DNA of 63,065 nucleotides, the filler included, from Folioceros fuciformis (lineage: Eukaryota), in assembly GCA_049999805.1 (NCBI GenBank). It is 7 parts of 7 records of this genome, joined end to end, with 100 filler letters (N's around TTAATTAATTAA, not from the genome) between each part and the next. Parts side by side here need not be neighbours in the genome. Positions count along the whole stretch, not along the records: positions 1 to 26,274 come from JBNGIO010002064.1; 6 more parts are not named here. One strand, given 5' to 3'. How positions within the stretch are numbered: position 1 is the first letter of the stretch; every line of letters starts with the position of its first letter. The position numbers and the translations under genes were made by a program. Positions 1-56,815 of the stretch are shown here, in pieces. Below the pieces are notes generated by a model that saw only the letters and a list, made by a program, of their open reading frames with translations, did not search any database and was not told the DNA's origin.

Positions 1-3000
1 AAAACCAACTAGACGAAAGGGCGATGAGGAACTTTCAAAACCAACTAGACGAAAGGGCGATGAGGAACTTTCAAAACCAACTACTTGCGGATGTAAGGCA
101 TATAGGATGGGAGCAAATCCAGGGATTGGGAGTGTCAGTAGACTTGATCATTGCCGGGTGGGAATGTCAAGGCATGTCATTGGCAAGAGCAGGAAGGGGA
201 TTGTTGGATCCAAGGTTAGCACTATTCTTTGAGTTGACAAGGATCATTAGGTTGGTTCAACAAGATCAGCAAGAGCCATGTGGGTACATTCTTGAGAACG
301 TTCTAGCAATGTTTGACAAGAGGCAAACTGTGAAGGCAATGTTTGACAAGAGGCAAACTGTGAAGGACAGCTTCAAACAAATAAGAGGAGTAGTGGGTAT
401 GGAAGTATATCTTGATGTTGTGCAGTTTGGGTCACATGTACGTCGACTAAGGTGCATATGGACAAACATGATGCCTAGAGAAGCATTGATGACATGCAGG
501 GATATCACAATGTTGAAACGGTGCAAGTGAAAGACATCAGGTTCGGAGACAGGCATCCTCAAGAAATCATGAAGTATGAAAGTATGCCGTACTTCGTTGT
601 GAATGAAGTGGGAAAACCAAGGGTAGCATGGCCAACCTTTGTAAGTGCAATTGGCTCTTATGCTTTTGGGTATGCTAACTCACCAGGCAGAGTGATGAGC
701 TCGGAAGGAGATGATATAGGAGAGCCAAATACACTCGAGTGAGAGTTAGCCATGGGATATGTCTTTGGAGCTACAGACATGGAAGGTGTGACTGAGAGAA
801 CAAGGTGAAGGTTATTGGGGCAGTCCATGGATGTCAACATGTTGACGTAGTTGTGTAGCACATGTGTAGCTTATCAATGGAGTAAGTACAAAAAGGGCAA
901 AACAATCGTTGTGGTACCGCAAGCTAGGGCAAAAAAAGCAAAGAAATCCAAGCTTGTCGAAGCACAAGTCAAGCGTGAAGATCAACCCAAGTTGATGGAG
1001 TGGGACGTGAACAAAGAGCTAACAGTTGAACAACAATAGCGAATGCAAGTTTTCTTGGATGCACACAAGGATAGCTTAGCATTTCCCATGAGTGATCTAG
1101 GTTGTTGTACCAAGTCCAAGTTCTCTATTAAATTGTAGAATGAGACACCATTAAGGATGTGGCATCATAAGCTTAGCAAGGTTGAGTGGGACATTGTGGA
1201 AGAATGGTGCCAAGAACTGCTCAAGGCAAGATTGATCAAGGTCTCAAATTCTGATTGGATGCCGGCTATTGTGTTACCATTAAAGAAGAATGAAGCTAGA
1301 AGAATGGGTGGACCAACGAATGTGTGAAGATTATCGTTACTTGAATGCTATCAGTAAATTGCATGGGTATCAAATGCTTACTCCTGATGAAATATTTGAT
1401 GACATTAGAAGTGCTTGCTACTTCTCCACATTGGATCTTAGGAAAGGCTTTAACCAAATTGACATCGTGGAGGAGGATCAATGCAAGACGGCATTTTGGG
1501 GAAGAGATTCATTATATGAATGGCTAAGGATGTCATTTAGACTAAAGAAATTTGTTGTGGTGTTTCAAGAGAATACTGATGGTACATTGGCAAATGTGCC
1601 TAAGGCAACGTGTTATGTGGATGACATCATTATCTTCACTAAGACTTTTGAAGAGCAAATTCAAGTGGTGGAAAAAGTCTTTGCTAGGTTGAAGGAATGG
1701 GGGCTTAAATGTCATCCTCGTAAGTGTACGTTTGCGTACAACAAGATGTTGTACTTGGGGCATGAGATAACTCCAGAGGGCATTTCACCTTACATGGCTA
1801 AAGTGGAGGCCATTATGAAATTGCCCAAGCCAATTGACATTTCCAAGTTACGAACATTTCTTGGACTTATTAGTTATTATGAAAGGTACATACCTAACAT
1901 GAGTGCAATTGTGAGGCTATTGACGCTATTGTTGAAGAATGGTCAGGAATGGTGTTGGGAGTAGGAACAAGAGTTGGCATTACTAGAGGTGAAGAACAAG
2001 CTATGCAACAGTTCAGTTTCACGAAGACTAGACTTTACCAGGGAATTTTTGTTGTATACTGATTAGAGCAAGCTTGGATTGGGTGCAATGCTAGCACAAG
2101 TTTTTGGGGATGGAGAAGAACACCCTATTGCTTATGCTAGTCACAGTACGAACGCTACTAGTAGAGGCAAACTATTGTTCTTATGAAGGAGAGTGTCTAG
2201 CACTTATGTGGGCAGTGATGCATTTCCGAGTTTATCTACATGGACGAATATTTGAAGTCATCACAAATCATCAACCATTGCATTGGTTGATGACAAACAA
2301 TAAGTTGACAAGGAAACTTGCTAGGTGGGCTATGATCTTGCAAGAGTTTGACTTCACTGTAACACATTGTATAGGGAAGACGTATTTGAATGCTGATGCG
2401 CTATCCAAGAACCCAATGGAAAGTAGCATGGATCTTAATGAGGTGCGACATGATTGGATCATGACATTGTAGGTCATCACTGTGAGTCGCAACTTGGCTG
2501 AGCTTGCAACGTATGAACTAGACGAGGAAGTCTTGGAAGATCTTGAAAAACCATAGGTTCCCATTGTGAGGGCCAATTGTGTTCGAGATGCATGGGCAAA
2601 TCAGCAGTTAATGGATTATGTTTAGACTGGCCAAATCGCTGAAGGGATTAGTCAACGGTGCAAGGATCAACTGCAGCACAGGGCAAAACGATACATGTGG
2701 GAAGATAGCAAGTTGTACATGTTGCAGTATAATGGTCAGCGTAAGGTGGTGCTAGCACCAATGGAGCGTGAGGCATTGATTATGCAAGTGCATGAGCAAC
2801 TGGGACGTTTTGGTGTCAAATGCACATTGAGCATGTTGACGCCATGATATTGTTGGGTAGGCATGCACAAGCAAGTGCAGGAGATTGTTGCCAGGTGCAA
2901 ATCATGCGATCGAATCAAGGCAAGATTTACAGCGGATGATATAGTGTTTCATTCTTTGCCTATAAGAGGATTATTCTACAAGTGGGGAGTTGACTTGTTG

Positions 3001-3225
3001 CTGAAATTGCCAAGGACCTCGTGAGGAAATCGTTACATGATGTTGATGATTGAGTACTTCTCCAAATGGATTGAAGTTGTTGTCTTTCATGAGAAGATGT
3101 CGTATAACACTGGCCAGGCATTTTGCAATGTATGTTGTCAAGGTTTGGTGCATGTGTTGAAGTTGTGACGGATCAGGGATCAGAGTTTAGAGAGGAATTT
3201 CAACAGCTTATGGACAAGGCGCTCA
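1..3225 (+). mobile_element. Decayed Ty3/Gypsy LTR retrotransposon pol, copy A: C5-DNA methyltransferase, RT, RNase H and integrase N-half (continues in the inverted segment 4039-4853)
   Basis: RT motifs RMCEDYRYLN, LDLRKGFNQI and YVDD (1290-1964). RNase H NYCSYEGECLA..ITNHQPL..ARWA..NADALS (2104-2472). Integrase Zn-binding HEQLG..C-x2-C (~2790-2910) and core WGVD..VVTDQGSEF (~2980-3190). Many stops and frameshifts; the 5' end runs off the window. Confidence 0.93.
24..850 (+). pseudogene. Retrotransposon-borne C5 cytosine methyltransferase domain (DNMT3-like), copy A, frameshifted
   Basis: Motif IV-like DLIIAGWECQG (141-173), motif VI YILENV (~285-302), motif VIII DVVQFGSHVRRLRCIWTN (~415-467), motif IX E*ELAMG (~737-757), motif X RLLGQSMD (~808-832). 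Motif I lies outside the window. Confidence 0.88.
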
Positions 3226-3750
3226 GATTGGATGGCCTTTTTCCATTTTGCAGCATCAAGGCTACTCAAGGCTTCTTCGTAAGATGAGGCTCTATGGGAT
3301 CAAGAGCAATAGCATGTACAGAGGGTGTCATAAAATCTTGAGACTGATAATAATCTGGTGCCCGTCTTTCTCTTGCCGGATAACGGCGCACCGGTTCAGG
3401 TACATCCTCATCATCAGGGTCAAGATCTAGATTTGGATCAGGACCATCATCGTCATTAGGAACAAGGGGTTCAGGATCAACAGCACATGAGGAGGTGGAT
3501 CCTGTATGTCAACAACAAAATCAGGAACTGCTAATTCATCTGCCTGCTCTACAACTTGTCCATCATTTTGCTGATTGTCTTCCCGCCCTGCAAGACCAAA
3601 CTCCTCATGTGGAAAGTTAGGAAAAACTGTGATGTCAGAAAGAGTAGACAAATCAAAAGCCTCTTGGGAGGTGGGAAGTGCTCCCACTGGCTGCCAAAAA
3701 CGAGTTTCATCAAAAGTCAGGTTGTGAGCTTGCCCGTAGCCCCATAAGTC
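3226..3750 (-). mobile_element. Ty1/Copia integrase-to-RT linker fragment (inverted)
   Basis: Minus strand reads LTFDET near 3715 and SYEEALSSLDAAKWKKAIQS ending at 3226, the typical Copia pre-RT motif. It joins EYDSL at 4854 once re-inverted. Confidence 0.8.
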
Positions 3751-4038
3751 TCATGAGCAAAAGGGATGAAAATATGTGTCGTGTTCTGCTGCTAAATATT
3801 GCACTCATGCATGGTTCATTAGTTAACAATACTCACACCATGCCACATTACACACAAATTCAACACTGCATGATGGTGCTGCAGCTCTATCCCCCCTACT
3901 AGTTAGTACTCTGCCAACACATATATGTTGTAGCACTACTACAACATACTAAGAATTCAAACATACATGTAACTCTTGAACAAAACATCAATCATCCATC
4001 AACTAGTATTACTTGTTAATGAAGATTAGGTTGCTGGC

Positions 4039-4853
4039 TCATGGCTTTGGCAACTTCGCACAGTTTGGGCAAAACCAATCTTCTTGCAATACTTCTTCCA
4101 AGGCTGGCTGTAGACAAAACAGGTGATACTCTTGATTACAATGGTTACACAAGAGCATGACATCTTCTTCATCAGAGTGACTACAAATGCGGCATTCCAA
4201 GTCCTTAGGTGGTATCCAAGTGCTAGGTTGTGGCTCTGGATCCAAATATGGCAAATGACATGGAGCTAGGTTCTTCAAATGATCTTTCTACCTTCGTCCA
4301 TCAGATCCCTCCAGCTCCACCACCCCAACGTCCTTGACAACAACCACCTGCAGAATTATGCGCCCAACACTACTATCAAGTGTATCCGAAGGTTGTTGAG
4401 CCAAGTATACATAATCACCAGGTTCAAATCGCCGCACTTTGAGCTTCCAACTTCCTCCTTTTGTATAAGCATAGCGTAGTCTGTCCCTATGTTGTGCAAT
4501 GGCCAAATTTTCCATTGCCATTGGCATTATATGCTGAAACAACATTTCCCGACTTTGCAGCTCTCTGATGCAGCCATCCACATCTTGCCATGATATTGGT
4601 CTTTCCATAGCAGCTTGCTGCACATTAGGCAACTGTGGATGTCTCCCAAACAATAAAAAATACAGAGAAAAGTCGGCAAGCGCGGCTTGATTGCTTGCCC
4701 GATAGCCCAACAACATGTATGCCACCACTTCATCCCAGCCTTTCGTGCTATTTTGCAAGCAATACTTACATAGAGCATGCTTGACAGTTTGCACTCCCCT
4801 TTCAGCCAAACCATCTGCTTGTGGATAATCCCTGCTTGTGCGACGATGATCAA
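4039..4853 (-). mobile_element. Gypsy integrase C-half plus C-terminal PHD finger (inverted piece of copy A)
   Basis: DHRRTSRDYPQADGLAERGVQT..LLFGRHP..FEPGDYVYL, then a C4HC3 PHD: CRICSHSDEEDVMLLCNHCNQEYHLFCLQPALEEVLQEDWFCPNC. Confidence 0.9.
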
Positions 4854-6384
4854 TGAATATGATTCATTGATAAAAAATGGAACATGGGAATTAGCTAAGT
4901 AACCTCCTGGACGCAAGCCTCTATCTTGCAAATGGCTTTTTAAATTGAAAGTTAAAGCAGATGGCACCTTTGATCATTATAAAGCTCGGCTTGTTGCCCG
5001 AGGCTTCTCTCAAGTGCCAGGTCTAGATTACCTGGAAACATATGCTCCTGTTATGAAGTTGGCCACTTTTCGCACTATATGTGCACTTGCAGCACACAAT
5101 GATTATGAGTTAGATATGTTTGATGTAAAGACAACTTTCTTACATGGAAAACTGGACACTGAAATTTACATGCAACAGCCACCTGGGTATGAGGTGAAAG
5201 GAAAAGAAGATTGTGTCTTACGCTTGATTTAAACCCTATATGGGTTGAAACAATCTGCCCTTGAGTGGAATGTTGTTCTTGATGAAGAACTGCGATCCCT
5301 AGGTTTTGTTAAATCTGCCTTAGATGGAAGCTTATATGTTTACAGATCTAAAGTTGTAGTATGTTACCTGGCTATATATGTAGATGATCTCATATTGGCC
5401 TGTAACAGTCCTACCTTCATCAAAGACATAAATAAGGTGTTATCAACCAAGTTTGAGATGACACACCTAGGTGCTCTACAAAGTTGCCTTGGCATATTGA
5501 TTCAGCGTGACAGGCAGAAAAGGACTATTTCTTTAACATAGCCACGATACGTATTAAATAGTGCTGAACAACTTGGTTTGAAGGATGCCAAACCATTAGC
5601 TACTCCTTTACCTTGTGGACTGAAAATAAGCAAATCAATGTGTCATGACACACAAACACAAAAAGATCAAATGAGAACAGTACCCTACAGATAGGCTGTT
5701 GGAAAACTTATCTATGCTGCAAATACTACAAGACCAGAAGTAGCTTATGCTACGAGTGTGCTTTCACAATATTTGGAAAATCTAGGTCAAACACACTAGA
5801 TAGGTGTTAAAAGAGTTTTCATATATCTAAAAGGCACTCATAACATTGGCATAAGGTATAGAAATATACCTGGAGTACCTTTATAGCTGGATGTCTTCAC
5901 AGACTTAGATTATGCTGGGGACATAGATACACGAAAGTGAGTTTCCGACTATGTAGTAATGATAGCAGGAGGACCAATCTGCTGGTCGAGTAAGAAACAA
6001 CCTACTATGGCCTTATCCAATACAGAGGTTGAGTATCGTGTGCTTAGAGCTGCTGCAACGGAAATAGCTTGGTGTAAATCGATGTTCAAGGAGCTTGGAT
6101 TACCACTTCCAACTTGCACCACAATTAAAACAGACAATTAAGGATCAATGAGTCTTCCTCACAATGCAGTATTTCACTCTAGAACCAAACATGTGGAAGT
6201 TGAATACCACTTTATACGTGACTTGATCAAATCTGGACAGATTGATCTAGAGTATGTGCCAACAGCTGAAAACCTAGTTGACATTTTAACTAAGTCCTTA
6301 GGAAGGGAACTTCACGAAAAGCACATGAAAGTTCTTGGCATGGGGAGCCATGAAGGTAGCCCCACTACCATATCTAAGACCTAG
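4854..6384 (+). mobile_element. Ty1/Copia RT-RNase H, decayed
   Basis: EYDSLIKNGTWEL, YKARLVARGFSQ, DVKTTFLHG, YVDDL, WSSKKQ..ALSNTEVEY, HSRTKHVEVEYHFIRD. Several in-frame stops. Confidence 0.95.
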
Positions 6385-7880
6385 CCAACCAAGCTAGTCA
6401 CAACGCCAATCATTGTTGTCGTCATTGCTTGATTTCCCTGGTGGAGATTGGAAAGATTTCCTGCTCTCAGAACTTGTTGAGTCAGCAAATTTTTCCCAAG
6501 AATCATAGTCCATAGACTCTGAAGAGAAAGTTTCATCTTCATTGCGAGGAGAAAATGTTTTCCTCCTCTCCTGATAAGAAATTCTCTCCTTTGTCTCGAG
6601 GATATTCTCCTCTTCAGATCTATCTTCAGATCCTGTTGATAGACTGTGGAAGCATGGTTCACAGACAATTGACATAGGTCAACAGGGGGTTAAGACCTTT
6701 CCAGGTCATACACAAAGGAAAAAATCAGACTATCTACACTGACTGTTTTAAGCACAAAAGAACAGACTCAAACTAGTGTGAAGACATACTATGGATACTG
6801 ATGATGTGATCTTTGTATTCCCGGCATAGCTGTAGCTCAACGTGTTTCATCACCAGTTCAGTAGATGTGCAACTGTACCAAAGAGGGCTTTCGGGCGTCT
6901 CCCAATTGCCAGGGGTTATGATTCTTGTTTCTGACATCACACCTGTGGGAATTGGGAACCTGGGCGGAACAGGAGGGCGTTCATTAGTATCGGCATACTC
7001 AAACTCACCACGATTGAAGCGGCGCCTTTCCACTGTTGCCTGAGAATGGATATCTTCACATGACCTGCCCCTCAAACCTCCCATGGTAGTAGTTGGTGCT
7101 GTGCGGGATCGAGGTTGAGGCGCGGTTGCTGTAGGTTGTTTAGTCCTGGTGCCTGAGGTCAAGCGGGTATGATGAGAAGACGTTGCCGCCACCACTGTCA
7201 CTGTCTCTGATGCTGCTTCCAGGCGTCTTGCTTCAAGCACAGCCCTGGCGGTGCCTCGGGGTCTCCCTCACGGCCACCCTGAGCTGCTTGCTCTTCTTGT
7301 ACTTTGTATCATTGTTTGTGCAGGCTGATGCGCTCTCACGCCTTCCTCAAAGACAGTTGCTTTAGCTGTTGCTAGTGCGAAGCGCCCTAGCTGATCTCTT
7401 GAGTAGATGCGCCGCTTTGCACGAGACGTGCTTTCCTCAAACCTTGAAAATGCCATGTTCTTTGAAGAATTGAGCTTGTGCCCTATGAGCCTAGCCGCTA
7501 TATGGCATGGGGCGTAAACAAGAGCTATTAAAACAACGAACCTGTACAGAGCTGGCTTCACACTATCCCGCTCCATTGGGAGCTTACACCATATAGAGTA
7601 CACACACACGCTCAAGCAAGAAGCCCAGCTGAACTCACAGTCTCCATAGGCTACTCGCGAAGGAGAAGACTGACCGACCCATAACAATCAGCAAGTGGGA
7701 GTGATGAGAATAGGTGCTGATTCATTAGGGTTCAGTAATATCAGCATTTATAGTATGTGTGTAAATAGATATTATTATTCTAAATATCCCTTCATTAGAA
7801 TTACTCCTTTAGTGATAGTGAAAGGTCATGTGTGTTCATGTTCATAATAACTTAAATTCGGTTAGCGTCTTTTGACATGC
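6385..7880 (+). mobile_element. Long 3' region of the Copia element with antisense ORF remnants; candidate PPT at ~7693-7701 followed by an AT-rich LTR-like stretch from 7702
   Basis: Minus-strand ORFs 7268-7687, 6773-7240 and 6394-6675. AAGTGGGAG|TGATGAG resembles a PPT/LTR boundary; the LTR end was not found. Confidence 0.4.
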
Positions 7881-7949
7881 GCTTTTATTGTAATATTCTT
7901 TGATTAATAATGTAATTGTTTAAAAAAGCAATTGGTCTACACCAATCCA

Positions 7950-10900
7950 ATCCAAGTACATGGCTTCGCCAATCACATGGAAGATTTCTTCTAGAGTTGG
8001 CATGAGATATCTTTCCATGGGTGTCACGCTGTTTAAAGCCCGGTAGTCTCCACACATACGCCTGTCCTTCCATTCCCTATTCTGATCCTTTTTTAACGAC
8101 AAGGCTATCGCCACCGCGTATTAAGACTTCAACTTTCTGATCAATCCAACAAATGCAAGCTCTTGGCATCGTTTGTCGACCAGGTCCCATTCTATTGGAC
8201 TTAGTCTGTGCCTTCTTCTGAACACTGATTCTTCGGTGCTAGTGTCTATACGAAATTTAATGCGATCATACTGCCCCAGCTCTTCCCAACTGAACGCAAA
8301 AGCATGTTTGTTTTGCTCCAACAGCATTCAGAACCCTTGCTTGTCTTCTTTGCTGAGCTCTTCGCATATCTGCCATTGATGTTCATTTCTTTCTTTGCTT
8401 CCCATGCACGGAACCTCTTCCCTTTCCTCATTTAGTGCCTTCTGCTGAGGATCCATTGGAAAGCTTGTTCCTGGCTCTAGCACTCGTAAGTGCCGTTTTC
8501 TTCTAGGGACACATGCAAACATCTGGGCTACCAGCCCTACACATATTAACCAATGTAGGCAAAACAAATCAAAGGCCTGCCCTACAAGCCTACTTCTGTA
8601 CGAGTTAGACACCCCTGGCGTGGTTGTGCCATTCAACCAGAACCCCATCGCACGTTCTCTTTCTATGATTACTGGTTCACCAACCTCCTCTCCTTTCTTC
8701 TTTAATACCATTCCATTGCCTTCATGATGAAAAATGTATGACTGAGATTTACTGACCAGTGTGGGCCATGCTCTTCTTGGCTTTCCTACAATGTTCAAGG
8801 GAAAGTTGGGCAGCCGTTCTGCCCTTCTTACTTGTTGAGACACCCCGGGTATTAGAGGAAGGAAGGGTCCCTTCCTTGCTCTAATATCTCATCCACTTGT
8901 TGCTGCGGGGGTTTGGTGCCTACCCTATGCTGCTTGAAGACCTCGACACTGGCCACGTTGGTCCAAAAACTTTGCACTTGGTGTGCATATGAGCCCACTT
9001 GAGCGGTATCAATAATGAATTCGCTCCCCAGCCATCGTCTAAGCTGTTCATAATCCTGCCTGATGGTCTCCCGCTTGTCGAAAGCACCACACATTTTCTA
9101 GCAAATACCAACAATTGGGATTCAACTCTTGCACCAACTGCAGCACTCGTATCACTTCCTCGGCTTGCCTTAGACCACTCCCCGTTCCCTTGCCTGCCCC
9201 AGAAAATGCCTTGCATTCCCAACCTGCTATCACCAGATGCACACGACAGCCCATGGACTCCAACTGTTGTCTCCCTAGCATCTCAATGTCTTCTGAGAGC
9301 CTGCTCTGACACCCGTTCATGGCCGATACAATGAACTGGGTGGGAAAGAATCGCTGCAAATCTTCAACGCGTGCCTTTGCGACTGCATGGGTTTTAGCCT
9401 ATCGTTCTACACAGGTGTATTTTTTTATCCTTATTCTGCATCGCAGCACTGCTTCCAACCCAATGCTGATCCTTGCACACAACTCAACTAGATGGATCCC
9501 TTGATCGGCTGGCTTCCATTGAATCACCTTCTTATCAATGCGAAGCTCCTCTCCCTTGAGCCTTTTTTCCATTTGGTAGGCAACTCTCTGGACACATGCC
9601 CGAGGCCTGCCAAGGCTTTGGCTTCTCATGTCGATTGCGTTCTCTGACCAATGCCTGCTCCAGTTCTTGTGTGGCCCGTATGCACATGCCAGTTCTACTC
9701 TCGTGTGACTCTTGTGTTTCTTCACCCATCATCTCTTGAGTTTCTGTCCACATCTCATCTCAATCCAGACTCGATGCCACATAACTACCCAGCGCTGGCA
9801 CATTCCCTGCCTTTGCGCCGCGCCTTCTCATTTCTAAAGGAATTCGGGCTGTCCAAGTGAAATCCCCATTCTGCCACCCTGGTCGATAGAATGCCACCAA
9901 GTGTAATGGGTCCACTCCCGTTGCGAGACCGTGTGTTGTATCAGCCCTAAGCAAGACATCGTAGTTCTCTGCCTTCGACACAAGACAGTGCACTCGTCTT
10001 ATACATGCATCCGGTGTGCCTATTTTGAATTCTATCTGAATTGGCTCTCATGTTACCCCTCATACCCTGGTGCTTGCGGATGTCGCGATTCTTACATGGC
10101 TGGGCCTGATTCTCTCCCCATACAGCTTCAGTTCTTGTTGCACCCGGGATCCCAGCATCATTAGGTTTGCGCCAATGTCTATTAGTACCCGTTCAGGGGC
10201 AAATCCATTGAGCGTGACATGTCTGTCCATATTTTTCACCATTGCAATTCCACCTCTTCCTCTGGATTCAAGTTTCAAATGATCTCCTCACAGGCTTACC
10301 ATCCCAATCACCGTTCCCAATTCATCAACTTCCTTTTTTATCCACGCTTGCATAGCACGCTTGAATGAACTAGTCTGGATCCCAAGATCTCGCAGACTGA
10401 CCATAGGGGCGTTCATGGCCTTTTCAAACAAAATATCAGCATTCGGTTGCTTGCATTGAGCTGGCACAACTGCCTCATCATCTTTCATTTGCCTGAAGGA
10501 ACTTGGCATTCTAGATTGCTGCTTGTCCTCAAACTGCCGACAAAAAACCCTCTTTCCAAAATTCGTGATTTGTGTTTGTGGCTCACTCGTTCTTCCTACT
10601 GTGAGCGCACTCACATTTGCCTCGTCGTCTGAGTTGTCTTTATTCCACCCTGGCGTGCACGGTGCAGTGACACACTCATTGCCAATTGTTCCTGTAAGTG
10701 CTGTACTTCACTCAAAAGAGCTATGGGTGTGTAGTTAGCCCTATGCTCTGCTTTCCCACTCTGCTCGTTCACTATCTTAGGCTTGAGTTCGGGGTGCACT
10801 TGCTAGCATGCGGCCTCAATATGTCTTGGTTTGCTGTAAGGCCGTTACACCTCCTTCTCCTTTACCCCTCCTGCCCGATAGTCACATGCACTAACTCGGT

Positions 10901-11830
10901 GTGCTCCTCTGCACTTCGAGCATTTGCTGGCATTTTGCTCACCACAGCACTGTTGACTGATCTCTCCTTTGAGGGTGAAAATCTTCTCAGCCCAGCTAAC
11001 TGTGTCTGCTCGCGATATGTGTCCCTACGGCCAACCTTCGAGGTGCTAGTTGTTCCGGAATGCCCTCTGCCTACATGATGCTCCTCCCAGTAAGCATTGG
11101 TTACTGCATCACCTTTCATCACTCGCTCAACCATCTCATAAGCCTGCTCCAGCTCATAATTTGCTCCATGTAACATGTGTAGGAAGTTGGTGATCACTCT
11201 CCGCAGTCAACCAGGAAGTGCTATGATGTATATTTGTGCTGCCTCATGCATTCTTTTTGCCTTGTTGTCCTTCACTAGCTGTCGGAGCCTTAGATACATT
11301 GACCGAAGAGGTTCTTTTGGCTTGATAACAAACTTGGACAGCTCTTGGATTTTTTCAATGGACGAGACCGGAAACATCTCAGCAAAAGAGTGAAACATCT
11401 CATCCACCAAGCACGTTACCATCTCTTAGGGTCTTGCAACTCTTGCTTCATCATCATCTTCTTTGAGTGACTTGCCCATTCTTCTGGTCCTGACCAGCAC
11501 TCGTGCATTCTCCATGATCTTCTCCTTGGAAGCTGGATAACAGGTGAGTGCTTCTCCAGCTAGAAACGTGCTCATCTTTTGAGCGCCATCTTCGGCATGA
11601 ATTCCGACTTGCACTTCAGTACCATTTCATCTAGCGACCACTTGAACTTTTCCTCGAAGTATGCCAGTGACATGCTGTCATGCCTACCAGTGAGCACATC
11701 ATTCTTGCTCAAGACTGGCTCTTGGTCCATTCTTCCTACCACCCGGCTAGAATCCCCAATCCAACGTCCTTATTAGACTGTGACTCTAGTGAAATCACCC
11801 ACTGTTCTTGTGAATGGATGGATACGAACT
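7950..11830 (-). mobile_element. Decayed Ty3/Gypsy LTR retrotransposon, copy B: gag, protease, C5-DNA methyltransferase and RT N-terminus (3'-truncated)
   Basis: Gag-like ORFs 11614-10862. Degenerate Zn knuckle SKPRHIEAAC*QVHPELKP (~10830-10780). Protease VLIDIGANLMMLG (10278-10060) and YDVLL. DNMT motifs follow, then pre-RT FRRRHRLSPIEW and RT RMCGDYRALN..YLMPTLEEIF (8327-7950). Confidence 0.9.
8560..9510 (-). pseudogene. Retrotransposon-borne C5 cytosine methyltransferase domain (DNMT3-like), copy B, complete motif set but frameshifted
   Basis: Motif I IHLVELCARISIGLEAV..IKKYTCVE, IV HLVIAGWECKAFSGAG, VI YLLENV, VIII IDTAQVGSYAHQVQSFWTN, IX ERERAMGF, X RSRLVGQAFD, all in canonical order. 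Confidence 0.9.
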
Positions 11831-13564
11831 TGCCTGTGTCTCGATCTGCTGCACCGGAGTAGCTTCGTTTGTTCACCCAAACGCAACACCACCATCTTCA
11901 GTCCCAGCCCCTGCGAGACACTATGTATGGCATCTTATCAAAATCTACGTTAGCACCTTCCTGAGTCCAGTGGCCAACCACAATATCAAATCGATTGCCT
12001 CTATCCACAATCGCTGCCACAATTCCTCAGCTGTGATGTTTAGTAACTCGGCTAGTTCGCTGATGGGTCCTCCGACAAACACTTGTGAGAAGTTCATGCT
12101 CACTTGAAGCATGCTCAGATTCCTAATTGTCTTTGTCGCTTTCCGTGCACCGCTGACACTCCTCTTCATCGTCATTCACACCTACAGAGGGACTGCTTGA
12201 TGTGAAAATGCTCTGTGCTAATTGCCAAATATCTCCTTCAAAGCTTTGACAATTCCCGGATCATTGCCTTCCAAAGGGACCTCGCCTGGCTGTGCTTACT
12301 CACGAACATCGAGCAGTCCACCCATTAGGGTAGGGCGGCTGCTCTTTATCTTTACTAGCACCGACTTAACATATTATGGTGATTATCCGTGAATCGTGCC
12401 TCTATTTGATCTCCCAGGATCCTCGTCCTACTTCTATATTATCTATTCCGGTCAGGCTTATAAGAACATACCTATGTGTGGTTCTGAACACTACCACCCA
12501 CTTGCCCCATCATGACAAACCCCTTGTGTTGGAGTGACCTGCCTTTATCGCATAGATAATTCCGGATTGCCAAAACTAATGGCTAAACATGGGCTACATT
12601 TTGGGTCTCATGGTAAACTCCGACCTTGAACACCTTCTCGACTTGGCACATTGGGTTTGGCTTCATAAGAACCTAATCTTAAGTGAGGAGGGGTTTGGCC
12701 TCATGTAAACCCTCTCTTGAGTGAGGAGTAAAAGGATTAGGAAAACTTGTTTGGAAGTCGACTTCTACTAGCTGGAACGTTTTTTTTAATGGTGAGGAAT
12801 AAATAGTAAGCAACAGCAGCATTGACTATGACTATCAAGATGGTCTTCCTTGGAGTGGCAAAATCATGGGCAATTTCTAATGGCCCTTGGCAACGTGTAC
12901 GATGGAATACTTCTACAAGCGTATAGGCCAAAAACGTATTTTTAGGGCATGAGTTGCACTGGAATGCAGGGCACAAGTTGCTCGAAGTTGTCCTGTGCTG
13001 TCCAAATTCGTGAAGGTTACGTACGTAGTATTTAGTCCTGTTATTAAGAGTGGGGAAGCTCCGCGCGGGGTTCGAGGTTTCGTTATAGGCACTCCGCACT
13101 CCTATGAAGGACATTTGGATAAAACCTTCTTCTGTGTGCGCCGGATGTGGGTATCTTGCTGTCAGCTACGACTTGATATGTTTTTTGGGAAGCCAGGTCC
13201 GATTTTGGAAAGTTAGGCAACTAGAGCAAAATGCAAGCACTCTGACCAGTTCCCAGTACGAATAGAAAAATTCGGGACACCACAAATCCAGAACAACAAC
13301 CCTCAAGGTTCATGTCCCTCTCGACCTTAGGTGAGAGGCTGTGAACCATTGAGAGAAGGACTTCACGACAATGTTGTGCTTGAAGATCAAGTTGTGCTTG
13401 TCCTTGGTCTTCTGGGACATCACTGCCCCACAAATCCATGTATACATCCGTCTTGTTCATGTGATGGACTAAATCAGAAAAACTTTTCTCACATCGTGGA
13501 CATCCACAGCAATGTTGTTGATGGCGTTAAGAAACTTCTTGCATAGAAACACCTCCATCCAGGA

Positions 13565-14071
13565 TCATCCAACTTGCCACTGCCAAGGAAAGGCGCAACA
13601 AGTTAGGGAATGTCTCAAGATACGGAAGGAATTTTCACAAGTACCTGAGATGCTGCGCGCATATTGCGTATGTCAACAACCTCCTGAGGGTGCAAACCTA
13701 CCCGGAGAGCAGGCTCGCCTCGATTCGGAGGAGGAGCAGGTTTCGAAGCAGCTTCGATGGCCTTCCGAGCAGCTTTCCCTCCAGGAGATTTGTCGAAAGC
13801 ATCAAGGCTGTCAATCAGTAAAGCCACGCTCAGTCTACACAATGCTCACGCATTTGTTGTATCGCACCTTGACATCCTGCCAAGTGCAAGTGCCAGTTTG
13901 CTCCTGACTCAAATACAGAATGCAACTTGCCACAGTTGACTAGGACACAAGCAGCCTGCACCGTTTCTGTGCTGCTTCTGCTGCTTTGGCTCTAGCATCA
14001 GCGATGCTTGCCTCCTCTGCCTCCAGATCGACGTCCTTGTCCCCCCGAAAGCAAGAGCACAAACCCCCCAT
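13565..14071 (-). CDS. Small SVIP-like (small VCP-interacting) lipid-anchored protein, 3 exons
   Basis: Exons 14071-13962, 13807-13702 and 13579-13565 with GT-AG introns give MGGLCSCFRGDKDVDLEAEEASIADARAKAAEAAQKRLDAFDKSPGGKAARKAIEAASKPAPPPNRGEPALRWQVG*. The MG..C.C start suggests myristoylation/palmitoylation. Confidence 0.75.
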
Positions 14072-14554
14072 TTCGTCGCTTTCAGGGTGGAATAAACACA
14101 GGGAACACCGCGAATTTACAGGCGGATCCTACAATCGAAACGTATGCCCAACAAAGGCCAAGTTGAACAGGATGCCCAGCGTCGCCAGATAAAAGGATTT
14201 CATGACCCGAAGAACCCTTCAGGGCCAGCAGAACTTCAACATTTTTCGCCAGTGACTGAACATCTGTCGATTAGGGTTAAGGTACACATACGAAATAGTG
14301 TAATAATTCAACTTCGGAAGGACTACTGGCAAATGGGACCGACGAAGTCCGATGGAGTGAAGTACAACTAACTCTTAAGCGGCAGACGGCATTCAAGCAG
14401 AATCGGCAGCCACATCGAGCTGTCAAAACAGAGATGAGACAGAGTGAATTGAGTAATGTACTGTCCTTAGCGCTGTATGTCAACCAATATAGCTACCTAC
14501 GTGACGACCTCCAGCGAGAATCTCCATGACAGTGATCACTACGATGTACACTTC

Positions 14555-16882
14555 TCACAAAAAGGCATCTTTCTCTAGCAGCTTCAACACATCCTTTTGG
14601 TTGTTGAGCTTAGCAACATCAATGGCAGTCTTGTTGTCCAAGTTCCTCAACGTTCTGCATTCAGAAAGCATCAAGTCTCAGGCACCACTGTAAAACCTCA
14701 CATGCAACTGAAGGACACTCATAAACTGTGGGTTTCACTTACACGGCAGCCCCGTTCTTCAGCAGCAGCTCAACACATTCCTTGCGCCCATAACCAGCTG
14801 CGTAGTGCAAAGCTGTGTTGCTGTTCTTGTCAAGGGCATCCACAGCTGCTCCAGCTTCCAATAGAACTTCAGCGCACTGAAGCTGTGAACCGAACACACC
14901 ACTCCAACTACCATGTCAGTGGCAAAAATGGCAGTAGGAACAAGGATCTGCTACCTCTCCAGCATCGAAAGAAGAAACTTAAGGCCAAAACTCACTTCAC
15001 CATAACCACAGGCGAAATGCAAAGCTGTCCTTCCTTCAGAGTCCTTCTCATCCTTATTGGCACCACCAGCAAGGAGGGTCTTCAAGGCCTGTTCACCAGA
15101 CAGGACAGACCCAAAAGTTAGAAGAAACATGAGTCTGTAGACCAGAAAGCAGGCAGAGAATTGTAAGGAACTGTTCTGACAGAGATGACGAGGACTACCT
15201 CCACGTCTCCAGTGCTAGCTGTAAGATGGACAGTAAGTTCGTCCTCTTCCTCATCTCCAGCATCATCAACTTCCTCTAGAGCACCATCCGTGGGTAAACC
15301 AAACGGCATGCCTTCAGCACCAGGAGCACCAACACCCATAGCTCGCCCTAGCTTGCTGAGCACCACGGGATCATTCCAGTACCTGCAGGGTGCAAACAAG
15401 AAAGGGTGTGAGCAAGAAGCCACCCCCCCAGAGACAAAGACAGCACAAACGAGAGAACACAGAAAAACCGACGACTTCCACTTTGCCCCATACTTCATCA
15501 TGGCCGCTGGACCTCCAGTCTCTATCTCCTCAAGGACGGGCTTGAGAGTTGGGTCTTCTCTGACTTGTGCCATACGAGCCTCAAGCTGCTCCTTGTTTGC
15601 AGGGTTTGATATATTTTGCAGCATACCGGACATCGCTGGATCCTGCAAGTGAAACAAAACTCCGTCAGAAAGAAGATCTGCACGGCACAACAAATGAGAT
15701 AGCGACGTTCACACCACGCCTCACCTGCATCAGTGCATTCCCAAGTCGCTCAGCCATAGTCATAAACTGAGGGTTCTGCATAACTTGCTGCATTGCGTTT
15801 ATGTACTGGTTGGAGTCAAGTTGAGGAACACCGTCTGTCCCGACAGTGTGCACCGATCGTTGCAGTTGCTGTGCCATCTGGCTGAAGGCAGGGTCCTTCG
15901 CAATCTGCTCTGCCATCTCTTTGATGCTCGGATCCTTCAATTTAGACATACGATTGAATCAGGATGACTAAGTCCAGTTCGTGCCAAGTGAGCGACGAGT
16001 TCGCTCATGACACACCGAGCTGAACACTTTGAGCACGGGGAGATTTAAGATTCGTTCACAGGCTACATCCTCGAGAAGGAGGAACAACGGAAGGACCAAA
16101 ACTCACATTTAAAAGTCCCGTCATAGCAGAGAAGTCGAAAGGATTTGACGTTATCGAGGGCTGTGCAGCAGCACCAGCACCAGCACCAGCAGCAGCAGGG
16201 GCAGGGGCAGGAGCACTGGAGGCCGAGTTCCCCTCATGGGCGTCACTGGTCTCGGGCTTTTTCTCTGGGAATACAAAGCCATCACAGGAATTAAAACGAA
16301 TCGCATTCAACTTCAATCGCCACTTTCCTCATTATACAAGCCATCCCACACCGCAATCTGCACTTTGCGCTCTGCCTCTGAGCTAGAGCCGAGAAAGAAC
16401 ACGTTAGAATGGGCGATCGAATAACCTAACTCATATCTGCCACAGCCAGCAAGCGGGGAAGCAAGAATCTCATAAACAAAACCAATGGCAAAATTGGCAG
16501 CTCATCGGCAAAGCTGAAGTTCAGAGAAATCATCTGACAGCTGAAGAAAATCCTCCCACGAAGAGGAATTCACGGATGAAAACCAAGAAACCGATACAGT
16601 CATCAATCATTGGATCAGCCCCGTCCTGGAGACATGACGGTAGCCATAAAGACGGACCAGAAACGATTCCAATGCACCGACACAGTGTCCTAAACATCCA
16701 GAATCCTCACCACAGGCAGCCAGCCGGCAAGACAGAGGCACCCCAGGGTTCTGCGAAAACTGCGCAACCTAGCTACTAGGAGGAGCAAGAGCAGAAGGAG
16801 CAGCACAAGAGGAACAGGAATCCATGAGCAGCAACCACAGACGAGAGAGGGAGACAGATTTGACACCTCCAGTACTGGCCAT
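14555..16882 (-). CDS. AKR2: Ankyrin repeat-containing protein 2 (STI1/ankyrin chaperone), multi-exon
   Basis: MASTGEKKP.. [53 protein letters not shown], ankyrin [14 protein letters not shown]-terminus KLLEKDAFL*. Confidence 0.9.
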
Positions 16883-17317
16883 GGCGCTGACGGCTGTTGC
16901 ACGCTTGCTAGACGGAGAACAACTACTCGTAGCGCGATCCTCAGCACGACGTTGCGGTGCCACCGCTTGAACGTCTCGTCTGACCTTAGACCTACAGGGT
17001 TCGTATCGGCTTTTAGCCAGGAAAGAGTTGCGATTTAGACGGCGTCTGATTTTGATGGCGCGGAGCGAACTGGGGATTGGACATGATCCCTCGACCGGTG
17101 CCACGTCTGATATAAGCATTATCATCTTCACCATTTGGAAGCATAAATTCGGAAAAGGCGTCCCAGGACGTAGCGGAACTGTGAGACGGACAGTGTCCGA
17201 TTTCCCGGCTGCCACATCGAAAGAGTTATAAAATGCCGCCACATCGACAGCTGTACACGTGAGTCTCTTTCACAAGATGAGGAGCCAATTGGTGCTCCAG
17301 TAAGCATATCCCTGGCA

Positions 17318-19616
17318 TCATCCGCCAGGTTGCTGGACACATTCCCCCACGAAGACGCTTCCAGACTCGCACCACCCGACCAGGACGTCCGATTTTGCCT
17401 TCTGCTTACGTACAGTACAAGGGAAAGGAAGCCGTCAGGCACAGGCCATAAGCTCTGCCAGTGTTTCAATTTTATCACCATGCCACCTTGAATCCTGGGT
17501 TTTGGATACTTACCGAGCAAGTTGTCGTCTCCATGCTCAGCCACCGCGAGTCACCCCGAAAACCAAACAACTGGCCCATTTCGCCTCCTACAGGATTCCA
17601 TCGTCCACAAACGGTCTGCAAGCAAGTCACGTGGAGCATCAACGCATCTCATCTCTTTTGTAGGATAAATGCAAAAACATTGAGGCTGAGGCAATTACTT
17701 CGTAGTCAAGACCGTGAACATAGAGATGATTGGGGCTAACTGCTGAGAACGAGAGACCCATGATCTGCGAACACGATTTCAACTATCATCGACCTCGAAA
17801 TAGCGACTGATGCCAAGGTACACAGAATCCATGACGGTTGTCCTCATCATGAAAAGAGGGGTACCTCGTACTTCAAGCAGTTTGTCCACCTCGCTGATGC
17901 ACTCCACCTAACATTTAGTGCTACAAGGTTAGCTGATAAATTCCTGGGGTTTTCAGCCTACAACGCATGGCCCGACCGAGGGCTTGCTTTAAATCACACA
18001 AACCATGACTACCCGCACCTTCGGGGATCAATAACTGTTGCAGTGCGACATGCGCCTCCAGCAGCCAACAGTCCATTGCAGGAGCTACTGAGAGCATAGA
18101 GAGGGTGTCCACTGTAAGCACTAACAACGGTTTGCACCAATCCTCCGCGTTCACTTACTCTTAGATCCCAGACAGTCAACTGCACAAAGAAAACCGAACT
18201 ACGTCAACAACTATGGAAGAATCAACTTTGATGTTGAAATGTGCATTCTACTTTGATGCCGGACAAACAAAGATTCATGCATGCTGTACATAGGACAGTC
18301 ATTATCGCACCTGAGGGCCCCCCGCCACAGCAAACGTTGAGGAAAATCCTGTGCCAAACAGGCCACCCCGAAGAAACGTGAGCGCTGCTGGTTGCTGGAG
18401 GCTGATTGCCAAAAAACAGATAGAAAGTGGCTGTTTAGAGGACGAATGCAGTGGGAGCAAACTCATACATTTTACCACCAGAAGCAGTAAGGTCACAGCT
18501 TACCAACTTACGTGCGCAGAGTACGAACATGGATATCCTTGTCATAAACATCAATGGTCTTTGCGAAGCCCCGTGCAACCACAGCCTTGAATTGACATCA
18601 TAACGTCAGCACAAAAGTATAAAGCCTGAAGCTTCTGAAACAAGAATTGTACATCTGGACAAACGCCTTACCAGCGTAGGTTGGCCCTCAGCGAAGGCTA
18701 GGCCAGCCCAGCTGCCTTCTCCGACTCCAGCATCTTGAGGTACGACGGTGTAACCTATAGTAAAATGAGTTAGCAAAGAGCTGTTTGAGGAGGTGCAACA
18801 GCTAGTAAACAAAAAGAACTTGCCCTCCATCACAAGTAACCTTGAGTAGGGACATCGAGACGATTGACCATGAGACAACCATAAGAGTCCACAGAGCCGA
18901 GCATAAGACCTCCATCGTCTGTAGAAGGAGAAACAGTGAACAAGAAGAATAACATCTTTGCAGGCAGACTGAAAAACAATAAAAGAAGCAAAGCTTACAG
19001 GAACATCCCGTAAGTGCCACACTCTGTATTTCAGCACGGTGGGAATACTGATCAAGTGCCCACGTCTCCAGACTCTGTGACCAACATAAACTGGAATAAG
19101 AAATGGAATAAAGAATAACGGAAGGAGAATCCATACATGGGCTCTTCTCTGTCATAGAGACTCGCAGGCGCATAACACACAAGAACCAGACATTCTGGGG
19201 ATCGAGAAAACCTGCGCCACTGCAGGTACGAGCAAATCCTCCTTTCCTTTCTGAACAGCAGCACTGGATAGTGGTACCTGCAAAACAGGGACTGACATGT
19301 CAGCAGTCCCGTCAACTGCACTGTAAAGTAGAGAAAGGGAGAAGAGTCCTACCTTGAAGCCGTAAAGGTGGATTCCGGAAGCGAAGTAAGCGGTGCAAAA
19401 CAAGCTGCCTTCGTTGTCAATCTGTAGACCACATGAATGTGAGCTGGCTAGCCTGCCCACCTAAGTACCACCGAGTTCTTGGACGCACGCCGCGAGGGGT
19501 AAGTGGAGGCTTACATGCACAGCCAGGCGACGCGAATACGGGTATGCAGGAGAAGGATAATCGAGGAGATGAGAAGGCAAAGTGGCCCGCTGCAGCGATC
19601 GCATGCGCAACGCCAT
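17318..19616 (-). CDS. Conserved plant WD40/transducin-like protein, multi-exon
   Basis: Exon peptides MALRMRSLQRATLPSHLLDYPSP..RRLAVH|gtaag, YFASGIHLY, WSASARWTNCLKYE, FGFRGDSRWL, DVLVGWCESGSVFVG. These resemble a conserved uncharacterised plant WD40-like family (from memory); internal exons were not all resolved. Confidence 0.65.
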
Positions 19617-19973
19617 TCCCGGCAACGCGGCCTTCCCATGTGCCCTCACTCTTTCCTTCGTGCGCAACAACACATAGAAAACCCAAGGGGTTAAGTTGTA
19701 ACGGCACTCGTATCGGATTCGAAGGTGGAGGGAAAGTCCGGCACGCTGCTGGGATACTTGTGGTGCATCGCCCTTGCGCGGAAGTGTGGACGAGACTGGA
19801 CTTAGCTGAGATCTTGCAGCTGCGGCTGTGGCGTGGGGTTGTTGCGCTGTGGCCATCGGCACGCTGTTTATCGCGAGTCATGGTGCACACGGAGCAGCTG
19901 GTAGCGCAGGGCACGTCTTGAGGTTTGGACAGTGGCAGGTGGCGGGTCGCTGTGCAGGCTTTTTGCAGCAGAC

Positions 19974-20890
19974 ATGGGGATGTCGGAGAGGGCATGGATC
20001 CTCTTGCTTGTGCTGGCGGTAGCTGCGGTCGGGGCACCCATGGTCTACGCCGGAAACCAGAACAATGTGTACAGCCCTTGCAACGATACCAAAGTGCAGA
20101 AAAACGATGGCTTCACCTTTGGTCTCGCTTTCGGAAGCAATGGAAGCTTCTACGACAATGATACTCGAGTCTCCCCCTGCGACTCCAGATTTCTGGAGTT
20201 GTCTGGTGGAGCTGTGCTTGCTGTGTTTCGTCCTAAGGTGGACGAGATCACCTTGCTCACCATCAACGAGACCGACCTCGTGCCGGTCTGTGCGGTTGTT
20301 GCTGTTTTAGAGGATGTGGCCAGCTGCAACATCCTGTCTGCCTCTGAGTCCTTTCGTTCTTGTTCATGTGTGCAGGAAAACGGAAATGGATATGTTGTGG
20401 CCTTCTCAGGTGTACAATATGCCGCTGCATCGTTTGTTAAGTTTGTGGCTAACAATTCTTACATAGTCACCAGTCTGACTCTGGTAAGCAACTTGTGGGT
20501 TTCCTTCTCTGACTGGACGGATGGATGGAGTAAGCTTGCTTGCAGTTCCGGTGGAGTCTAACAGCTTTCTTCCTCCAGGTGTTAGACTTCAACAATGGAC
20601 GACTGGCAAACTACCTTTGGAAGGATGATAACTGCGGCGCGTGTCAATCAAGCACTTCCTTCGTCTGCATTAACGGGGAAGATTGTGCCATACCAACCGA
20701 AAAATGCATCGCTCGTGGTGGCAGTGTGGACTGCAGTGTGAGTATCCAGGTGACCTTCTCTGGTGTTGACAAGAGGGACGCGGTTCTCAACTCCTGGTAC
20801 CAGGTCAAGAATCTTCGTCAATATTCCCTTTATTCGCTGTACGATAACCTGAAAAACTCCCTGACAAGCGATTTCAATCCATTTGGCTAG
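19974..20890 (+). CDS. Secreted Cys-rich plant protein (At3g11800/At3g44150, 'Expp1'-like family), 3 exons
   Basis: Signal peptide, then NNVYSPCNDTKVQKNDGFTFGLAF, SPCDSR, VFRPKVDEI, LDFNNGRLANYLWKDDNC, QVTFSGVDK..LNSWY..LRQYSLYSLY. Confidence 0.8.
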
Positions 20891-24790: not shown

Positions 24791-24944
24791 GTATGTATGT
24801 ATGTATGTATGTATGTATGTATGTATGTATGTATGTATGTATGTATGTATGTATGTATGTATGTATGTATGCATGTATGTATGTATGTATGTATGTATGT
24901 ATGTATGTATGTATGTATGTATGTATGTATGTATGTATGTATGT
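24791..24944. repeat. (TATG)n microsatellite
   Basis: About 38 tetranucleotide units with one variant unit. Confidence 0.97.
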
Positions 24945-25589
24945 GCTAAGGCTAAGTTAATGGCATGCATTTGTCAGGCGGGAAAGAAAACAGTTCTGCA
25001 TCATCTGGTGATCGCTACATGACATGAAAGGAAACTCGATTGCTCGTACCGCTCGCTAAGGCGTTCCCTAGCAACGTTTCAGTGTAGCCGAAAGTAAGAG
25101 CGGGCCGTGAGGGGTGTGAGTTGCAAGGTCTTCAGATCATCACAATCCCAGGCAGGTAATCACTGGATGGTACCTTAGTGTACCAACGACGACAAGTATG
25201 TGGGCCTGTCCTCGTCGGTACATGGAGTCCACCACGCCGCATACCGGTAGCCTGGCAATGTTCACATGTGAAGGGCTGGAAGCAGGAAGATAGTGATTCC
25301 GCAAACTGGAGTAACGATCCAAACTGTGACAATATTACATTACACCTGACTTTATCTGACATACAAGTGTCATGCGGAAACGTGAAGAGGTCTAAATCGC
25401 GTGGACTTAGAAGTTACACGTGCGGCTGACGAAAACATGTCCTGCAATCAGCCATGCCTGTGCCTACTTCGCAACATAGCACCTCATTCTAGCCTGTAAC
25501 CTTGGGATTATCACAGAATCGCGTATTTGTCTGTGTTGAACAACCACTTGATAAGAAAAAAAGAGGAGAGACTCTCCAACAGCATGCCA

Positions 25590-26274: not shown

Positions 26275-26374
26275 NNNNNNNNNNNNNNNNNNNNNNNNNN
26301 NNNNNNNNNNNNNNNNNNTTAATTAATTAANNNNNNNNNNNNNNNNNNNNNNNNNNNNNNNNNNNNNNNNNNNN

Positions 26375-50200: not shown

Positions 50201-50641
50201 CCCGGAAACGGCTCTTCCTGTCTCCACTTTACGATTCACATTCCGCGGAAACCTGCGCTCCTCTGTCCGTACCCCTGACCCAGCATCCGCAACCTTGATG
50301 TTCTGACCCAGCTTTTCCACAGCCTGCCCAGGCGACTCTGAAGGCTCTCTCCTCCAAACAGAATTCCTATACCTGCTACTAGCCTGAGACCAGCTCTTGG
50401 AAGACTCCGCCGGCGGATCAGACGTTTCCGACTGGGAAACAATGCTCCTGGCCTGCCAGCGACTTAAGGATATAGGCTGACGAGAGAAGAGCCAAGGGCA
50501 AGAGGGCCACCGAGGCAATGTGTGCAGACCCAGCTGCAGGTCCAGCTTCAATCCATTGCGCGGAACTGCGAAGCAACGTTCAGTGAAGCAATTGCAGCAG
50601 AGAAACATTGTCCTGATTACGACACAAGAGCTTACCTTCAT
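47229..50641 (-). CDS. PRORP: Proteinaceous RNase P (PPR plus NYN nuclease), multi-exon, long N-terminal extension
   Basis: LDMCSKFGD, YNVLLYLCS, PKLRSYGPAL, GGGWHGLGWLG, CQCC Zn site, DAIVDAANVG, TPTGSNDDWYWLYAA, VTNDEMRDH-like, MPPPYSIVIQ, QWLCVTR. The start is uncertain. Confidence 0.93.
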
Positions 50642-56716: not shown

Positions 56717-56815
56717 NNNNNNNNNNNNNNNNNNNNNNNNNNNNNNNNNNNNNNNNNNNTTAATTAATTAANNNNNNNNNNNNNNNNNNNNNNNNNNNNN
56801 NNNNNNNNNNNNNNN

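Follow-up and report, generated by a model that had tools for sequence, protein, structure and literature searches.

Does a land plant carry, or did it once carry, Ty3/gypsy retrotransposons that encode their own cytosine methyltransferase? This question is raised by positions 1-11830 of a 63,065-nt stretch of DNA (seven parts of seven records joined with filler, hereafter the window), in which two copies of a broken retroelement, A on the plus strand and B on the minus strand, hold a DNA methyltransferase (DNMT) domain ahead of the reverse transcriptase (RT). Both copies lie within the gap-free positions 1-26274, which come from record JBNGIO010002064.1. To judge from the available text of the 2018 report by de Mendoza et al., published DNMT-carrying retrotransposons are those of Symbiodinium and one streptophyte alga, and include KnitGypsy-Dnmt3, a Ty3/gypsy element with a DNMT3-type domain in Klebsormidium nitens (PMC5890265). 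The analysis described here makes it likely that the 1-11830 segment contains two separately inserted, diverged and dead relics of the KnitGypsy-Dnmt3 lineage, in what is probably an embryophyte outside the mosses and liverworts. Methyltransferase-carrying retrotransposons invert the usual picture, in that the parasite writes the silencing mark of its host, and embryophyte relics would mean that land-plant genomes, with their elaborate CG, CHG and CHH methylation, also met such elements. No land-plant report of a gypsy-borne DNMT was present in the literature searched, which did not extend to supplements and most subscription papers; it yielded the 2018 paper and, in the parts available, later citations of it for 'streptophytes (Gypsy-DNMT3)'. 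The survey of plant long terminal repeat (LTR) retrotransposons behind REXdb has zero mentions of a methyltransferase and zero of a PHD finger.

Architecture of the two copies

Stop-to-stop open reading frames (ORFs) and three-frame translations reveal copies A and B as broken retroelement coding spread over several frames, at the places and with the motifs that the original prediction had given for them; no third copy occurs within the 63-kb window. The two decayed copies were read against intact relatives, of which the nearest, P0318, is one ORF of 2358 aa with the Pfam order protease (PR)-DNMT-RT-RNase H (RH)-integrase (INT)-PHD and a CCHC zinc knuckle visible by eye, and another, P0025, is an intact single ORF with zf-CCHC, PR, DNMT, RT, RH and INT. 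The window copies are colinear with both through PR, DNMT, linker and RT. The parts of copy A are as follows.

1-850, plus strand: DNMT3-type C5-methyltransferase (PF00145; tblastn with P0318 residues 998-1142 and 1182 onward)
851-1283, plus strand: DNMT-RT linker (tblastn with P0318 residues 1182-1450 and P0025 residues 1162-1414)
1284-1964, plus strand: reverse transcriptase (RVT_1, E 9.4e-21; 42% identity to the P0318 RT)
2095-2472, plus strand: RNase H (RT_RNaseH, E 1.2e-19)
2587-3224, plus strand: zinc finger of the integrase with the start of its catalytic core (tblastn with P0318 residues 1727-2079)
3225-4029, minus strand: non-coding tail 3' of the PHD finger, within the inversion (placed by position only)
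4030-4287, minus strand: inverted PHD finger, at the integrase C-terminus (PF00628, E 8.8e-12 at 4287-4039)
4288-4857, minus strand: rest of the integrase core, inverted (tblastn with P0318)

On the plus strand (1-3224), copy A thus reads DNMT-RT-RNase H-integrase, the order that had been predicted for it and that is borne out by Pfam and by tblastn with relatives. The window edge removes its 5' part, although the genome may hold more of it; motif I lies off the window, and motifs IV to X are present (AGWECQGMS, ILENV, GSHVRRLRCIWTN and E*ELAMGY). The DNMT domain, matched by PF00145 at 3-530 in frame 3 (E 1e-10), is read in frame 3 to about position 503 and then in frame 2, with two in-frame stops, and includes two in-frame tandem duplications (window 1-88 and about 294-392; units of 36 bp and 30 bp). 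The linker is homologous to that of the intact relatives and aligns with copy B 8459-8076. Within the integrase, Integrase_H2C2 at 2626-2847 is weak when taken alone (E 0.055), and tblastn with the intact relatives carries the alignment through 3224.

The end of copy A, formerly set at 3225, has to be moved, as the integrase resumes on the opposite strand from 4857. P0318 residues 2079-2354 align with 4857 to 4030 on the minus strand (47% identity, two stops), and residue 2079 maps to both +3224 and -4857, with no residue missing; the same continuation is seen by tblastn with P0025, P0052, P0057, P0062 and P0102. About 1.6 kb of copy A has therefore been inverted, position 3224 is the breakpoint, and with the inverted tail the copy reads DNMT-RT-RH-INT-PHD. 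The tail at 3225-4029, for which no repeat partner was found in window 1-20000, could have a 3' untranslated region or an LTR inside.

As a separate observation, the inversion (window 3225-4871) splits the integrase exactly between two residues, and its right end has a 9-bp palindrome at about 4851-4871 and adjoins a 5'-truncated copia element (RVT_2) that starts at about 4862.

Copy B runs on the minus strand from 11626 to 7932, near which it is truncated, and consists of the following parts.

10862-11626, minus strand: putative gag (phmmer match; three in-frame stops, the stretch itself ending in one)
9835-10287, minus strand: aspartic protease with motif LIDIGAN (tblastn with P0318 residues 652-791 and P0016 residues 1021-1133)
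8547-9500, minus strand: DNMT3-type domain, motifs I to X, in three frames (tblastx to copy A; tblastn with P0318 residues 917-1473)
7932-8546, minus strand: DNMT-RT linker and first ~50 RT residues, RMCGDYRALN... (tblastx to copy A 917-1421)

The order gag-PR-DNMT-RT had been proposed for this copy. Its greater part, PR-DNMT-RT start, holds, and the gag is barely supported, by a single local phmmer match (E 2.7e-4, some 220 sequences being searched) to residues 114-228 of the Closterium protein P0015, a part that is N-terminal of the protease. Asp_protease_2 at 10060-10287 scores under its cut-off (E 0.015) and aligns to the proteases of relatives. Motif I of the DNMT domain is degenerate (VELCARISIGL), motif IV reads AGWECKAFS, and the linker and RT start align by tblastn with P0025 residues 1196-1467 and P0318 residues 1172-1473.

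Between A and B, tblastx gives six colinear segments that lead from motif IV to motif X, through the linker and into the first 40 RT residues, with amino-acid identities of 30-53% and a joint E of 5e-56, and blastn finds no DNA similarity. Protein homology without DNA similarity indicates that A and B are old, separately diverged members of one lineage and not the outcome of a recent duplication. The Ty3/gypsy Pol order PR-RT-RH-INT is found in the two copies taken together, with RVT_1 and RT_RNaseH in A, the integrase by tblastn, and PR upstream in B. In the most probable reading, the polyprotein of the lineage is gag-protease-DNMT3-type cytosine methyltransferase-RT-RNase H-integrase-PHD finger.

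Class of the methyltransferase domain

The domain had been described as DNMT3-like from its motifs, and three further lines agree with this. In the class ranking (METHYLTRANSFERASE) of a 26-sequence family profile against PDB, DNMT3A came first (E 5e-25), followed by DNMT3B and 3C (about 1e-23), tobacco DRM (3.6e-11), M.HhaI (1e-8), DRM2 (2e-8) and DNMT2 (5e-3), DNMT1 being absent among the matches listed; the copy A fragment taken alone gave only weak M.HaeIII and M.HhaI matches. An AlphaFold2 model of the relative P0002 (pLDDT 92) returned DNMT3A, 3B or 3C at all of the listed ranks 1 to 49 in Foldseek, with E down to 1e-20 and TM scores of 0.6-0.8. Finally, motifs I, IV, VI, VIII, IX and X follow one another in canonical order in copy B and in the relatives, unlike in the rearranged DRM. 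A DNMT3-type assignment is thus supported at the family level, through the profile, the predicted structure of a relative and the motif order. Searched with P0002, the ESM Atlas returned nothing beyond generic PF00145 clusters, of which two are viral and one is dominated by streptophytes.

The catalytic Cys and the ENV of motif VI are present in both window copies. Of 127 relatives, 125 retain the Cys, and ENV, the arginines of motif VIII and the glutamates of motif IX are near-invariant. The residue that precedes the Cys varies, being Pro in about 36 of the 127, Klebsormidium included, and Glu in 75 of them; many of the Glu-Cys relatives are long open reading frames.

Relatives and phylogenetic position

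A HMMER search with the copy A fragment retrieved 438 proteins at E ≤ 1e-3 (82 at E ≤ 1e-10; best identity 46%), a word-index search with the same fragment gave two matches, and the window copies are homologous to more than 100 polyproteins that have this module. Domain orders were mapped in 160 of the 438. The window's order, with the DNMT between protease and RT, is found in 27, and in 46 the DNMT follows RNase H and precedes the integrase, a G-patch being frequent and a PHD finger at the end usual (P0052, P0057 and P0062, for example, read RT-RH-DNMT-INT-PHD by Pfam); the remaining 87, assigned to neither order, comprise 86 DNMT-only fragments and one ambiguous case. The view that the position of the DNMT is a family trait, first taken from the two window copies, is upheld by the 438 relatives and by the 27 that share the PR-DNMT-RT order.

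Organism names were available for 10 of the 30 clusters looked up, namely P0122 (K. nitens, GAQ93235.1), seven relatives from Closterium strains, P0011 (Mesostigma) and P0102 (Scenedesmus). A profile search of long proteins (alignment A1; proteins of 1491-4255 aa only, with mid-length relatives and cellular DNMT3 references outside its range) had names on 12 of 61 proteins and added Haematococcus, Chlamydomonas eustigma and Cymbomonas, all with RT-RH-DNMT, together with distant Prorocentrum matches. Among the organism-named rows, the window's order belongs to streptophytes and the RT-RH-DNMT order to chlorophytes. The lineage is thus wider than one alga, including Mesostigma, Klebsormidium and Closterium, with a sister architecture in chlorophytes, and a PHD finger is a regular part of its integrase. 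The findings on breadth, on two architectures, on the PHD finger and on Glu-Cys concern the relatives rather than the window. In metagenomes, a scan with P0016 gave no match, and a scan with A1, an overly general pattern, gave one locus of the RT-RH-DNMT-INT-PHD type (L001, 1475-7483), on an 11-kb contig in which no terminal repeats were found; the other 79 A1 loci look like ordinary prokaryotic methylase genes, judging from contig names and weak partial matches.

The original prediction had proposed, as a check, a DNMT tree that includes the Klebsormidium retrotransposon domain. In such a tree (FastTree, 129 rows), A, B and the Klebsormidium domain share a 26-tip clade, of which 18 rows have the window's order, six are unassigned and none has the other order. 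In a 40-row IQ-TREE analysis, A and B pair (97/87) and stand in a polytomy with a Klebsormidium clade, a Closterium clade and P0318/P0003, and the RT-RH-DNMT elements form one clade (100/97). Rooting of the latter tree is by midpoint only, since P0145 and P0092 have long branches and the domain set lacks the intended Prorocentrum outgroup (three rows). On these sequence grounds, we take the window element to be a member of the KnitGypsy-Dnmt3 lineage.

Host lineage

The host had been called a land plant, and two genes at 38-51 kb in the window, beyond the N blocks, agree. These and a third gene are placed as follows.

38075-39478, minus strand: CLUAP1/IFT38, full-length ORF of 467 aa, covering 97% of the best relative
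40500-43022, plus strand: pentatricopeptide repeat (PPR) protein, 840 aa, PLS-type, E motif present (PF20431 at 42 bits; cut-off 27.3)
48758-50761, minus strand: exon of PRORP (protein-only RNase P), by Pfam

In the CLUAP1/IFT38 tree (30 rows), the window protein falls in a 100/100 clade with seven moss and liverwort rows, Klebsormidium, Chara and Mesostigma remaining outside, and together with one unnamed sequence it is sister to mosses plus liverworts (99/98). The PLS/E class of PPR proteins is taken as a land-plant trait, and the E-type protein points to organellar C-to-U editing. Such editing has not been found in algae, according to the part of the source available (PMC11135702). The host is therefore very probably an embryophyte outside the mosses and liverworts, as far as gene phylogeny and domain content indicate. 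The CLUAP1 reading frame is intronless, which is unusual for a land-plant flagellar gene, and may be a retrocopy.

Decay and proposed mechanism

Both window copies lack present function, as had been stated from the outset. Aligned with relatives by tblastn, copy A is interrupted by 14 in-frame stops over 1340 columns and changes frame at least four times; for copy B the figures are five stops over 695 columns and at least three changes of frame. A rough estimate from the stop density places the neutral decay since inactivation on the order of 5-10%, a divergence far below the age of land plants, so the family would have been mobile late in the host lineage. The observed/expected CpG ratio is 0.35-0.54 in the copies and 0.63 for the window, with TpG/CpA in excess, which fits decay in a CG-methylating genome.

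In living members of the lineage, the protease would cut the polyprotein and release the DNMT or a DNMT-RT unit beside reverse transcription, and the released DNMT may then set de novo methylation on the fresh cDNA or on the DNA that flanks the insertion. That retrotransposon DNMTs methylate cDNA or the insertion site is a hypothesis put forward in the 2018 report, in the text available (PMC5890265). The PHD finger of the integrase may direct insertion by holding on to histone H3 tails, in the manner of the chromodomains of chromoviruses. Its nearest PDB structures are KMT2C, KMT2D, WSTF, KDM5, ATXR5, BAZ2A/B, UHRF1/2, CHD4, PHF21A and AIRE. Most of these PHD fingers, from KMT2C/D to AIRE, are readers of H3 unmethylated at K4, which suggests that integration is steered to H3K4-unmethylated chromatin.

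A further proposal, which we advance tentatively and regard as rather doubtful, is that a land-plant lineage outside the mosses and liverworts carried mobile DNMT3+PHD gypsy elements, received by vertical descent from the streptophyte-algal ancestor, until geologically recently, and that intact copies may survive in other parts of this genome or in related plants. If it were true, land plants would offer a system whose transposon brings both a de novo methyltransferase and a histone reader of its own, and the capture of DNMT3 by gypsy would date to early green-lineage evolution and not to the Klebsormidium lineage.

Alternative explanations

Some observations speak against details of the interpretation given above, and four other accounts were weighed against it. 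As to the details, no direct or inverted repeat of at least 40 bp occurs in window 1-20000, so that no LTRs or terminal repeats were found and the boundaries of neither element are set; this absence says little, as it is expected of copies that are truncated or cut. The putative gag of copy B matches no Pfam family, even when translated through its stops. A PF00145 search of both copies had been proposed, and the check succeeds in copy A (42 bits against a cut-off of 22) but not in copy B, where 17.2 and 15.3 bits fall below it; copy B is accepted as a member for its homology to copy A and to the relatives. The pairing of A and B could be long-branch attraction of two decayed sequences, with end branches of 1.02 and 1.04. 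In addition, the CLUAP1 tree contains no hornwort, lycophyte, fern, other vascular-plant or Coleochaete rows, and taken alone is compatible with an algal host nearer to land plants than Chara is.

The account that survives best among the alternatives, although we consider it unlikely, is horizontal transfer, with a green alga or some other organism as donor, in place of unbroken vertical descent from a streptophyte-algal ancestor. It draws on the fact that the organism-named relatives are all algal (Mesostigma, Klebsormidium, Closterium, Scenedesmus, Haematococcus, Chlamydomonas eustigma and Cymbomonas), with a land-plant name on none of the 30 looked-up clusters and none of the 61 long relatives, and on the stop-density estimate, by which the copies died far more recently than land plants arose. 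The missing land-plant names are weak evidence, however: transposon ORFs are usually dropped from land-plant gene sets, and the absence weighs little accordingly. Furthermore, A and B nest within no algal clade in the IQ-TREE analysis, and their pairing at 30-53% protein identity without DNA similarity fits a long diversification inside one host lineage.

Somewhat less probable still is the view that the DNMT domain does not work as a DNA methyltransferase and would instead be a pseudo-enzyme, used as a module for binding DNA or chromatin, or else an RNA methylase. In both window copies, as in the 75 of 127 relatives mentioned above, Glu stands in place of the catalytic-loop Pro, and the Klebsormidium enzyme showed no methylation in yeast, a result that its authors call inconclusive in the text available (PMC5890265). 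In that same assay human DNMT3B failed too, and the Klebsormidium retrotransposon DNMT domains have Ka/Ks below 0.2, again in the available text (PMC5890265); these results, together with the conservation of the Cys, ENV and the motif VIII and IX residues described above, speak against this view.

That the first 12 kb are an algal contaminant, or were mis-joined to plant sequence, we regard as very improbable. The relatives that bear names are algal, and the embryophyte-type genes (38-51 kb) lie beyond the paired 44-N blocks at about 26.3, 30.7 and 35.6 kb; yet the uniform 44+44 pairing of these blocks suggests masking more than scaffold gaps, and GC content and CpG depletion shift gradually along the window. 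The gap-free 1-26274 that holds both copies also has plant-type copia fragments and an Expp1-like ORF, whose nearest Atlas clusters are Streptophyta-dominated (score 0.91, of low recognition value and thus a lead only).

A host DNMT3 pseudogene lying beside gypsy fragments by chance, for which nothing speaks beyond adjacency, has a negligible probability and is ruled out by the tblastn colinearity of two independent copies, identical in order, with the single-ORF elements P0025 and P0318.

Other features of the window

Beyond the two copies and the host genes, the window contains the following features.

26327-26902, minus strand: ORF resembling a PIF/Harbinger-type DDE transposase (candidate, by eye)
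28420-29325, minus strand: copia gag (Retrotran_gag_2, E 6e-27)
57359-57916, plus strand: copia integrase tail (SH3_retrovirus, E 1e-22)
26275-26374, 30651-30750, 35618-35717, 54942-55041, 56716-56815 and 59371-59470: paired N blocks

Each of the six N pairs has exactly 44 N per member, with 12 bases between the members. Two long ORFs on the minus strand, at 55723-56391 and 59644-60585, are alike, both starting PLWSRLRSWL..., and represent one repeat; the ORF that adjoins it (60449-61309, minus strand) matches no Pfam family. A long 4-bp microsatellite lies at about 24800-24950, where several frames give CMYV or HTYI repeats. A search of the whole window against Rfam returned no family.

Comparison with known systems

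The catalytic domain of cellular DNMT3A, 3B and 3C is the best profile and fold match of the element domain, and the two agree in motif order, in the AH-R-R-[FY]W-N pattern of motif VIII and in the motif IX/X region. The element domain differs in being without PWWP or ADD, in sharing about 23% identity with the cellular enzymes, in having mostly Glu before the Cys and in residing inside a polyprotein. With chromoviruses, the lineage has in common that the C-terminus of the integrase bears a histone reader, presumably for steering integration; the reader here is a PHD finger and not a chromodomain.

Among methyltransferase-bearing retrotransposons, SymbioDIRS-Dnmt3 of Symbiodinium likewise has a DNMT3-type domain within its Pol, and its enzymes methylate CG de novo in yeast; it is, however, a DIRS element with a tyrosine recombinase, which its authors view as an independent capture, as far as the text available goes (PMC5890265). 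Closer are the chlorophyte gypsy elements with RT-RH-DNMT-(G-patch)-INT-PHD (e.g., KAF8056149.1 of Scenedesmus sp. PABB004, P0102), whose DNMT, RT, RNase H, integrase and PHD finger are homologous to those of the window's lineage, but whose DNMT follows RNase H instead of preceding RT and forms the separate clade (100/97) noted above.

KnitGypsy-Dnmt3 is the nearest described system. It shares with the window copies a Ty3/gypsy Pol and an unrearranged DNMT3-type domain within the polyprotein, and P0122 (GAQ93235.1), a partial Klebsormidium protein without RT that reads zf-CCHC-PR-DNMT by Pfam, has the order of copy B. The window copies differ in that they are dead, form a branch of their own and have Glu-Cys, against Pro-Cys in Klebsormidium. 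DIRS-like repeats are described for KnitGypsy-Dnmt3 in the available text (PMC5890265), whereas none were found here, and the PHD finger after the integrase has no mention in the main text of that paper, outside figure 4c and the supplements, which were not covered (PMC5890265). The host here, too, is different, being probably an embryophyte. As members of the same lineage as KnitGypsy-Dnmt3, the elements of the window extend an already known kind, probably to a new host group.

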